This document shows, one piece after another, positions 6,187 through 6,500 of a DNA stretch of 55,427 bases. The DNA comes from Candidatus Moraniibacteriota bacterium. Lineage in GTDB: Bacteria > Patescibacteriota > Minisyncoccia > Moranbacterales > UBA1568. The stretch covers positions 1-55,427 of the forward strand of contig CAINXS010000052.1 of assembly GCA_903854995.1 (NCBI GenBank), written 5' to 3'. Positions within the stretch are counted from its first letter, which is position 1; each line of letters opens with the position of its first letter. Under the pieces are notes generated by a model. It was given only the letters and a program-made list of their open reading frames with translations. It had not been told where the DNA came from and ran no database searches. A program made the translations under genes and the position numbers.

Positions 6187-6191
6187 ATCTT

Positions 6192-6268
6192 TGAATACAG
6201 AATCATGAATTAGGAATTTGAGAATAAGGAATTACGAATGATGAATCAGGGATAGAGTAATATGAATC
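6192..6268. repeat. GAATCAG/GGAAT-type word block (left arm of the atpD-atpG spacer)
   Basis: The sequence gaatacagaatcatgaattaggaatttgagaataaggaattacgaatgatgaatcagg... was read directly. Confidence 0.85.
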
Positions 6269-6318
6269 GCGTCTCAAACAGCTATCATCTTGCTTGATTC
6301 TCTCTCTTCCTTTCAAAT

Positions 6319-6354
6319 CGACTCATGTCCCCGGACCGTTCCGGAAACAAATAG
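6319..6354. other. conserved small hairpin motif, copy A (CGACTCATG-N3-CCGGA-CCGT-TCCGG-AA-N-CAAAT)
   Basis: It aligns with copy B at 9139-9178. The stem carries compensatory changes between the two copies. Confidence 0.5.
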
Positions 6355-6420
6355 TTGATTTGACAGATGAATCAGGAATAAGGAGTTTTGAATCATGCCT
6401 CAGACCATCTTGTCCCCGTT

Positions 6421-6500
6421 TTTTCTTTATTCTTAATTCCTGTATCTTTGTTCTTCATTCCCAATTCCTCATTCCTTATTCTTTATTCATAATTCTAATT
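6421..6500. repeat. ATTCC/ATTCTT-type word block (right arm, inverted relative to 6192-6268), overlapping the atpG stop
   Basis: The sequence ttttctttattcttaattcctgtatctttgttcttcattcccaattcctcattccttattctttattcataattc was read directly. Confidence 0.85.

Follow-up and report, generated by a model that had tools for sequence, protein, structure and literature searches.

The 55,427-nt contig CAINXS010000052.1 (assembly GCA_903854995.1) of a Candidatus Moraniibacteriota bacterium (Patescibacteria, candidate phyla radiation, CPR), hereafter called the window, carries nearly all of its genes on the minus strand, among them an ATP synthase operon in the order atpB-E-F-H, an insert, atpA-G-D, a gene of the PF05635 family and atpC, followed by leuS. 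Between atpG (6495-7373) and atpD (4789-6186; both minus strand) lies a 308-nt spacer (6187-6500 with its borders) that is bounded by arrays of tandem heptamers, and the nature of this and similar spacers is the subject of the present analysis. An earlier note on this DNA had described a purine-rich block that starts at the atpG stop codon and a complementary block next to the atpD ATG, and this description is confirmed. The 5' arm (6419-6497, minus strand) consists of about 11 GAAUNRR heptamers from the atpG UAG stop onward, and the 3' arm (6193-6267, minus strand) of AUUC-type heptamers, the last of which lies 6 nt from the atpD AUG. In minimum free energy (MFE) as well as centroid folds the 3' arm pairs with 6439-6497 across about 250 nt, and the stem reaches from the atpG UAG to 12 nt short of the atpD AUG. 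Compared with dinucleotide shuffles the spacer is far more stable (MFE of -93.4 vs -68.9 +/- 4.8 kcal/mol), which corresponds to z = -5.16, and not one shuffle out of 100 folded as stably. An inner AUUCC-type block (6366-6397, minus strand) has two possible local partners, the 5' arm and an inner GGAAG block, and the two inner blocks permit an alternative two-hairpin fold.

The spacer also contains a conserved core hairpin of about 55 nt (6309-6363, minus strand; CGAUUUG-CCGGA-ACGG-UCCGG-CAUGAGUCGAUUUGAAAGG) with the flanks CGATTTG and CATGAGTCG(A/G)nTTGAA. It recurs in the window at 9140-9185 (core B) and, at other junctions, in two relatives, namely L008 (10981-11044 and 11400-11450), a Moraniibacteriota metagenome-assembled genome (MAG) with an AtpG that is 99% identical to that of the window, and L009 (7999-8056), another MAG with 86% AtpG identity. 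Subtypes of the core swap CCGGA/TCCGG for CCGAG/CTCGG, which amounts to two compensatory pairs, and the distribution of the core is restricted to this species cluster; a motif scan of viral contigs gave no matches. Since Rfam returned no match for spacers or core in E-value mode on 3700-10700, and the tmRNA as the sole match at gathering threshold in the whole window, the spacers and the core fit no known RNA family.

A cassette of related build (4296-4803) is found between atpD and atpC. It harbours a gene termed IVP1 (4331-4690, minus strand) for a 119-aa four-helix bundle protein (PF05635, E = 8.5e-26; TIGR02436, '23S rRNA intervening sequence protein' or S23p, 88.8 bits), a relative of which is the pentameric four-helix bundle of X. 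campestris (PDB 2GSC). IVP1 is AT-rich and of foreign-looking composition, with a third-position GC content (GC3) of 0.46 vs about 0.7 in the neighbour genes. The 5' arm of the cassette (4705-4803, minus strand) follows directly on the atpD stop and is made of ACAACUN arrays with interleaved GGGGAAC-type heptamers, the 3' arm (4296-4330, minus strand) comprises four GUUGUAA units that run up into the atpC AUG (4302), and the two arms pair across the open reading frame (ORF) in MFE and centroid folds. Per 60-nt segment, the cassette including its arms is 88-98% identical to its counterpart in L009, compared with 75-82% for the flanking atpC. On a larger scale, the 5' arm is built from modules of about 46 nt (4714-4801; ACAACT units plus GGGGAAC-GGGGAGG-GGAC), two of which are present in the window and three in a 95%-identical metagenomic copy (L089, 2330-2500), and its G-rich heptamers are similar to the GGGGAYT repeats of Nostoc, which form quadruplexes.

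The IVP1 cassette has the anatomy of an rRNA intervening sequence (IVS), as known from Leptospira, Coxiella and Xanthomonas-type elements: its loop holds a PF05635 ORF, and its long stem, with tandem heptamers in the stem region, is closed by terminal inverted repeats. The ORF is present at 4296-4803 and missing at 6187-6500. In the 23S rRNA of Coxiella, the IVS has an S23p ORF, a 28-bp terminal stem that is cleaved by RNase III and, at its 5' end, tandem GACAGAT heptamers of variable number (PMC4990558), and rRNA insertions of CPR bacteria also carry PF05635 ORFs (PMC11270868). Like the rRNA IVSs, the elements described here are sporadic, apparently horizontally transferred and selfish-looking.

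The atpA-atpG spacer (7374-7487, minus strand) is composed of an ACAACUN array (7448-7482), G-rich heptamers (7417-7447) and a GUUGU array (7385-7416). It aligns to an ORF-deleted IVP1 cassette with a score of 66, compared with 18.4 +/- 3.5 (maximum 31) for shuffles, and is therefore a miniature, ORF-less derivative of it; its fold is no more stable than that of shuffles (z -0.9). Seven independent assemblies show 100% identity over a 1.5-kb stretch that takes in both spacers, and the arrays are therefore not an assembly artefact. The same identity rules out a hypervariable contingency locus, since the arrays are not hypervariable within the population.

The link between PF05635 genes and heptamer arrays extends beyond IVP1. 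A metagenome scan with the IVP1 protein yielded 80 loci (32-96% identity, contig GC 27-69%), and those with sufficient flanking sequence were used for the flank analysis (n = 61) and the gene-context count (n = 63). A heptamer array lies at most 160 nt away in 44 of 61 loci vs 4.2% of background windows, and the opposite flanks carry the same word in inverted orientation in 39 of 61 cases (64%) and in direct orientation in 11 of 61, in diverse metagenomes. The words vary by locus (e.g. GGACGAA, CAGCTNT, GTCCATA, ACGATGG, CAACTGA), and array density in these contigs amounts to 5.75 per 10 kb. More than half of the genes (37/63) have co-directional ORFs on either side, at distances of about 63 and 74 nt, and one locus with heptamer arms (L095) falls within a 16S rRNA gene. 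As far as our searches show, three things are missing from the literature: word-matched inverted heptamer arrays on both sides of PF05635 genes as a general pattern, the presence of such cassettes and their miniatures in ORFs and at the junctions of operons, and their abundance in Patescibacteria. The earlier note had known of no description of the paired use of heptamers from stop to start; parts of it are in fact published (PMC4679880, PMC4692102, PMC4990558).

A second PF05635 gene of the window, IVP2 (37404-37781, minus strand), is located between a weak match to a T-box leader (37855-38033; 27.9 bits, E 5e-4, under the gathering score) and ileS, and its cassette seems to have landed within the ileS leader. 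Outside the window, L008 and L009, no PF05635 gene was found in the long atpG-atpD spacers of the relatives, which contain other palindromes and reverse-strand ORFs.

The heptamer census of the window itself compared lags of 5 to 10 nt, with five shuffles of the window as control. It gave 16 strong arrays at lag 7, as opposed to 0, 1, 2, 2 and 0 at lags 5, 6, 8, 9 and 10, and none in the five shuffles, and the TRF output agrees with this period-7 excess. The words of the window are ACAACTN, GAATNRR, ACAGATA/GAACAGN, GCGAAAT and GGGGAAY. Those that the earlier note had given for its further loci are indeed present there; its idea that each locus uses a private word, by which an arm would find its own partner, does not hold, because GGAAT/ATTCC-type arrays occur at at least 7 window loci (beyond the two it had listed also at 2839-3037, 14990-15023, 21522-21555 and 33276-33303) and ACAACT/GTTGT-type arrays at at least 8, and several of these lie in one and the same operon. 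Strong arrays inside the window also have direct neighbours more commonly than inverted ones.

The picture differs when relatives are included. In a pooled set of the window and 29 related atp loci, chosen by AtpG similarity and in part with doubtful MAG labels, 37.5% of the 144 arrays lie no more than 250 nt from an inverted array of the same word, compared with 15% that have a direct partner and less than 1% for unrelated words. Inverted arrangement, the test that had been proposed, prevails across the pooled loci and not within the window, and word-matched pairing holds clade-wide even though uniqueness of the word fails in the window. Of 38 classified pairs (39 found), 27 occupy co-directional spacers, with arms that typically begin a few bases from the stop and terminate 0-20 nt from the start; overall, the arms of relatives lie -8 to +20 nt from stops and starts. 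Word-matched stop-to-start heptamer hairpins are thus a real clade-wide feature, and array density is about 20-fold higher in Patescibacteria-like loci (2.5-2.9 per 10 kb, with 2.5 for the pooled set) than in atp loci of other phyla (0.13). Some members of the set (L010-L016, L024, L025, L036, L037 and others) are labelled 'uncultured Bdellovibrionales' or 'Gammaproteobacteria'; their AtpG is nearest to that of Moraniibacteriota, they have heptamer hairpins too, and their taxonomy looks unreliable.

Taking these data together, we lean, with some reservation, towards the explanation that the spacers are filled by selfish, hairpin-forming, IVS-type cassettes with closing stems made of tandem heptamers. 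They do not look like purpose-built control devices for the ATP synthase genes, and nothing points to a selected device. Full-length copies would carry a PF05635 gene (S23p, an Avd-like four-helix bundle) in the loop, as at 4296-4803, miniature or composite copies devoid of the ORF would occupy the atpA-atpG, atpG-atpD and hyp-atpA junctions, and some copies would have settled in frame in permissive protein loops (mutY-like, leuS). Because native junctions are only few bases long, an insert would span the whole distance from stop to start, and it would be tolerated there because the lineage makes no use of Shine-Dalgarno (SD) sequences. The match of words within an element would follow from an origin of both arms as inverted copies of a single array, and slippage together with point mutation could make arrays grow, shrink and decay into degenerate or solo arms. 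By analogy with the stems of rRNA IVSs, transcribed stems of 20-50 bp would probably be RNase III substrates, and the window stems of 17-50 bp are compatible with such cleavage. Once they are cleaved, the atp transcript would be cut at the spacer junctions, and effects on expression would represent a by-product or a secondary co-option.

One could instead imagine that the stems are a selected intercistronic RNA device that couples or tunes translation, or that creates processing sites and unstructured A/U-rich leaders. The stem that extends between the atpG UAG and the vicinity of the atpD AUG (z -5.2), the position of the relatives' arms (-8 to +20 nt from stops and starts), the recurrence of hairpins with different words at atpA-atpG and atpG-atpD in several divergent genomes, the absence of SD use in the lineage (PMC9297842) and the proposal that TAACTGA repeats ahead of starts act as translational elements (PMC4679880) would all suit such a device. 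We nevertheless regard it as improbable, because the hairpins come and go. The atpA-atpG junction is empty (3-19 nt) in at least 8 relatives; elsewhere it measures 42-378 nt and contains either heptamer hairpins with different words or palindromes unrelated to them; in L009 it retains the 3' arm only. Hairpins are not kept even among the window, L008 and L009: the array after the atpG stop is of GGAAT type in the window and of ACAACT type in the two relatives, and despite 99% AtpG identity the atpG-atpD spacer differs between the window and L008, which has an extra reverse ORF there. Moreover, an element of about 150 nt, composed of core B (9140-9185) and a GGAAT hairpin, lies before atpA in the window and before atpD in L008 (81% identity). 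Two of the listed stems also fail to beat shuffles, and the same arrays occur in ORFs and as solo arms.

A preferred strand was not found either. The order of arms on the mRNA is unbiased in the relatives (13 vs 14), and a purine-arm-first rule, although followed by 6/6 window loci, is thereby rejected. The sense strand folds more stably at 20 loci and the antisense strand at 15 (Wilcoxon p = 0.6), with 107 and 106 G-U pairs, respectively. The lack of both orientation bias and sense-strand bias places the signature at the level of DNA and not of RNA.

As the earlier note had pointed out, arrays abut the start codons of all five genes that it named (atpC, atpD, tatD, the SpoU/trmH-family gene and recO), and these genes are without SD. 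It is true that no room for an SD sequence is left at the spacers, yet this is uninformative since SD scarcity is a genome-wide or lineage property: an SD-like motif precedes 8 of 54 window genes, which equals the background of 18%, and the anti-SD is reported missing in a Parcubacteria subgroup (PMC9297842).

A different explanation dispenses with both mobility and function. The arrays might be pure simple-sequence repeats that arise in situ by slippage, with 7 nt as favoured unit, the inverted pairs stemming from local inverted duplication or template switching and the PF05635 link merely reflecting that such genes lie in repeat-prone, AT-rich junk. This appears rather unlikely to us, even though it accommodates the tandem structure, the variation of copy number among strains and orthologues, the locus-specific words of the relatives, the many solo arrays and arrays in coding regions, and the lack of strand bias; passages of PMC4692102 and PMC4679880 that cite Mrazek 2007 also credit polymerase slippage for heptamer excess. 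Slippage does not readily account for inverted same-word arrays that bracket 64% of PF05635 genes vs 4% in the background, for an ORF-less cassette copy, for one composite element at different junctions in two strains, for whole hairpins that are present or absent at junctions of otherwise 3-6 nt, or for arrays that are invariant in seven assemblies of the population.

If the elements are mobile, they could also be moved in trans. The window encodes a Y1 transposase (162-500), enzymes of this type work on single-stranded DNA hairpins, and the elements are hairpins at gene junctions. They could hence be REP-derived hairpins (REPINs) or miniature inverted-repeat transposable elements (MITEs) that depend on an IS200/IS605-family or RAYT-like enzyme. 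This is very doubtful, as the Y1 protein is an IS200/IS605 TnpA (NF033573, 90 bits with a cut-off of 55) with a score of only 21 bits for RAYT (REP_Tyr_transpos, cut-off 80), as the hairpins CCTCGCGGCTTGCCGCG that flank TnpA itself are unrelated to the heptamer arms, and as the heptamer elements vary in word, unlike REPINs, which repeat a single sequence almost without change. A RAYT/REPIN identity was rejected on the basis of the NCBIfam scores and the unrelated IS200 end hairpins. The TnpA region with its CCTCGCGGCTTGCCGCG end hairpins covers 162-748, and its N-terminus is possibly disrupted; at the other edge of the window a fragment of a group-II-intron-like reverse transcriptase is found (54710-55414).

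With regard to a MITE nature, terminal inverted repeats, an ORF-less derivative and one element at different junctions in two strains were observed. Several points speak against the IVS-type cassettes that we favour. Neither a target-site duplication nor a transposase or another function for mobility came to light for the elements, which bears on MITEs as well, and many locus-specific words suit growth in situ as well as transposition. A PF05635 ORF is missing from 6187-6500, and no PF05635 gene was found to have the GGAAT arms or core of this locus beside it, so that the locus is placed in the IVS-like family by architecture alone. The identity of the IVP1 cassette to L009 exceeds that of the conserved atpD (82-93%) only modestly, and the arms of IVP2 are weak. 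No RNase III gene (rnc) is present within the window, and if RNase III cut all such stems, the perfect 17-bp stem of the mutY mRNA would do harm. Finally, the labels of many relatives come from MAG pipelines alone.

Further heptamer loci of the window illustrate how variable the elements are in site and stability. The earlier note had suggested a comparison with shuffles, which its loci pass in part. Besides the atpG-atpD spacer, the GGAAU/AUUCC hairpin at 8990-9139 (minus strand), the end of which is the atpA AUG, and the region 52520-52710 are moderately more stable than shuffles (z -2.6 each), and the region 41990-42170 clearly so (z -4.6 to -4.8). This does not apply to 7374-7487, as mentioned above, and to the spacer between a GH-family gene and the SpoU/TrmH gene (45312-45555, minus strand; z -0.5), which has GAACAGN/ACAGAUA arrays on its 5' side and CUGUUAUC words ahead of the AUG. 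The notion that the arms fill stop-to-start spacers likewise applies to the atp and other junctions and not to all loci. The inverted arms GCGAAAU / AUUUCGC at 52532-52698 (minus strand), which form the perfect 17-bp stem, are in frame within a 403-aa mutY-like ORF (52228-53439), downstream of the Fe-S cluster motif. At 41998-42166 (plus strand) the upstream neighbour is not a stop codon but the tmRNA gene ssrA; this ssrA-infC spacer belongs to a plus-strand block (40.6-43.4 kb; smpB, ssrA, infC, rpmI, rplT), and its two arms of GAAGCUUNN 9-mers have a period of 9 instead of 7 and a word that is itself palindromic.

The length of the stems, and the position of the ssrA-infC hairpin after an RNA gene, might suggest transcription terminators or attenuators within operons, a possibility that we consider close to negligible. 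The heptamer stems are AT-rich, without U-tract, and separate subunits that need co-expression, and a classical GC-rich terminator exists at the operon end, past atpC (3802-3830). Intrinsic termination was discarded as the scan flags 3802-3830 and no heptamer stem.

Solo arrays occur at 53440-53582, 9924-10076 and 13724-13798 as well as in leuS. The first of these, the mnmA-mutY spacer (minus strand), holds ACAACUN arrays in direct orientation only, and has no inverted partner (z -1.0). A solo AUUCC-type array (33273-33310, minus strand) reaches the probable start codon of recO (32557-33375), with its ATTCC heptamers at 33276-33303. In leuS, three in-frame arrays were found altogether, which differ among strains: the GAAUCAG arrays at 2839-3037 (minus strand) are translated as NQESGI(K/R), where L008 and L009 instead have other words or sequences, and the ACAACUN arrays at 1231-1312 (minus strand) are translated as LTTxNSQ repeats. 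The leucyl-tRNA synthetase gene (749-3757, minus strand) moreover has a NUDIX insertion behind its editing domain (aa 412-529), an unusual fusion for this enzyme that is kept in L008 and L009.

Palindromes other than heptamer arrays are also present. A second, nested family, GTCATyCCGGG...CCCGGrATCC ... GGATTCCGG...CCGGAATGAC, is located at 9860-9965 and 15040-15125 of the window and in the atpA-atpG spacers of L009, L018 and L037, and gene callers read it as protein, namely as the '...ILAMT' N-terminus of a 120-aa hypothetical protein (hyp120, 9561-9923). A third family, AGTCGAGGGAnCTGC...GCAGATTCCTCGACT, occupies co-directional spacers at 10544-10585, 18043-18084 and 33940-33981 and probably explains the fold of the spacer upstream of ileS (33893-34048; z -3.9). 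Between atpH and atpA, a small antisense ORF (about 9333-9665, plus strand; 110 aa, no Pfam family) is accompanied by a sigma-70-like promoter with 11/12 matches (9260-9288) and a terminator-like hairpin on the plus strand (9687-9717); the reverse ORF in the atpG-atpD spacer of L008 is a different one. Pfam searches with the C-terminal segment of mutY, hyp120, a 75-aa ORF and the antisense ORF returned no families.

The window elements are found between atp genes, ahead of ileS or within ORFs, that is between or inside protein-coding genes and, unlike rRNA IVSs, never within an rRNA helix, with the 16S insertion of L095 as a counterpart among the relatives. Most of them have lost or never had the ORF, and the RNase III excision known for rRNA IVSs is for them a prediction by analogy.

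The short tandemly repeated repetitive (STRR) units STRR1-3 of heterocystous cyanobacteria are CCCCAGT, TTGGTCA and CAACAGT, and none of them is among the window words. The likeness to STRR-type repeats that the earlier note had seen is supported all the same, in that tandem 7-nt units are mostly intergenic and of lineage-specific abundance, G-rich GGGGAAY heptamers stand beside ACAACT arrays, and some arrays form inverted pairs. The differences are another phylum, mostly other words, a dominance of the inverted word-matched pair in the relatives (37.5% vs 15% direct) and the tie to one gene family. STRR and long heptameric simple-sequence repeats were described by Mazel 1990 and Mrazek 2007, according to the passages of PMC4692102 and PMC4679880 that cite them, and in Xanthomonas and Nostoc some inverted heptamer arrays as well as GGGAATC/GGGGATT repeats are known (PMC4692102). 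TAACTGA heptamers adjoin start codons without ribosome-binding site (RBS) in Beggiatoaceae, Cyanobacteria and Bacteroidetes, and their sets are almost all direct (169 direct, 1 inverted; PMC4679880). The arrays of the window resemble them in standing right before RBS-less starts and also inside ORFs, and ACAACTG, read in the register CAACTGA, is one base off TAACTGA; they differ by their several words and frequent stem-forming inverted pairs.

Correia elements of Neisseria are processed by RNase III, Rickettsia palindromic elements (RPEs) insert in frame in ORFs, and the families of repetitive extragenic palindromes and their mosaics (REP/BIME), enterobacterial repetitive intergenic consensus sequences (ERIC), Correia elements and RPEs each go back to a single consensus sequence and have defined terminal inverted repeats. 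The in-frame insertions in mutY and leuS are reminiscent of RPEs, whereas the word of the heptamer arms varies between elements. All these families and the REPINs (PMC3116915) have in common with the heptamer elements that they are co-transcribed hairpin inserts at gene junctions.

A much wider proposal, to which we give little credence, would be that the heptamer arrays of several phyla (STRR, TAACTGA, GGGAATC and those of Patescibacteria) are arms or footprints of one class of PF05635-associated mobile cassettes. By analogy with the Avd-reverse transcriptase pair of diversity-generating retroelements, these would perhaps move with the aid of a reverse transcriptase and of RNA that RNase III has released, and in SD-less Patescibacteria their stems would have been co-opted to cut polycistronic mRNAs at cistron boundaries, which would leave unstructured A/U-rich leaders for internal initiation.

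Overall, if the IVS-type explanation is true, it would provide a concrete origin for the unexplained heptamer arrays of cyanobacteria, Beggiatoaceae, Xanthomonas, Bacteroidetes and the CPR, and would tie them to PF05635/S23p, a family without known function since the 1990s. IVS-type elements would then not be bound to rRNA, and would have colonised operon junctions and protein loops in ultra-compact genomes. In genome annotation, gene callers take arrays for protein (hyp120, N-terminal extensions, the leuS and mutY inserts), and arrays inflate the apparent 'intergenic regulatory' sequence of CPR genomes. If RNase III cleaves the stems, the elements would shape the architecture of operon mRNAs in organisms without SD initiation. 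We see in the heptamer elements a useful clue to how heptamer repeats originate and to an orphan protein family, rather than the translational device at which the earlier note had hinted.

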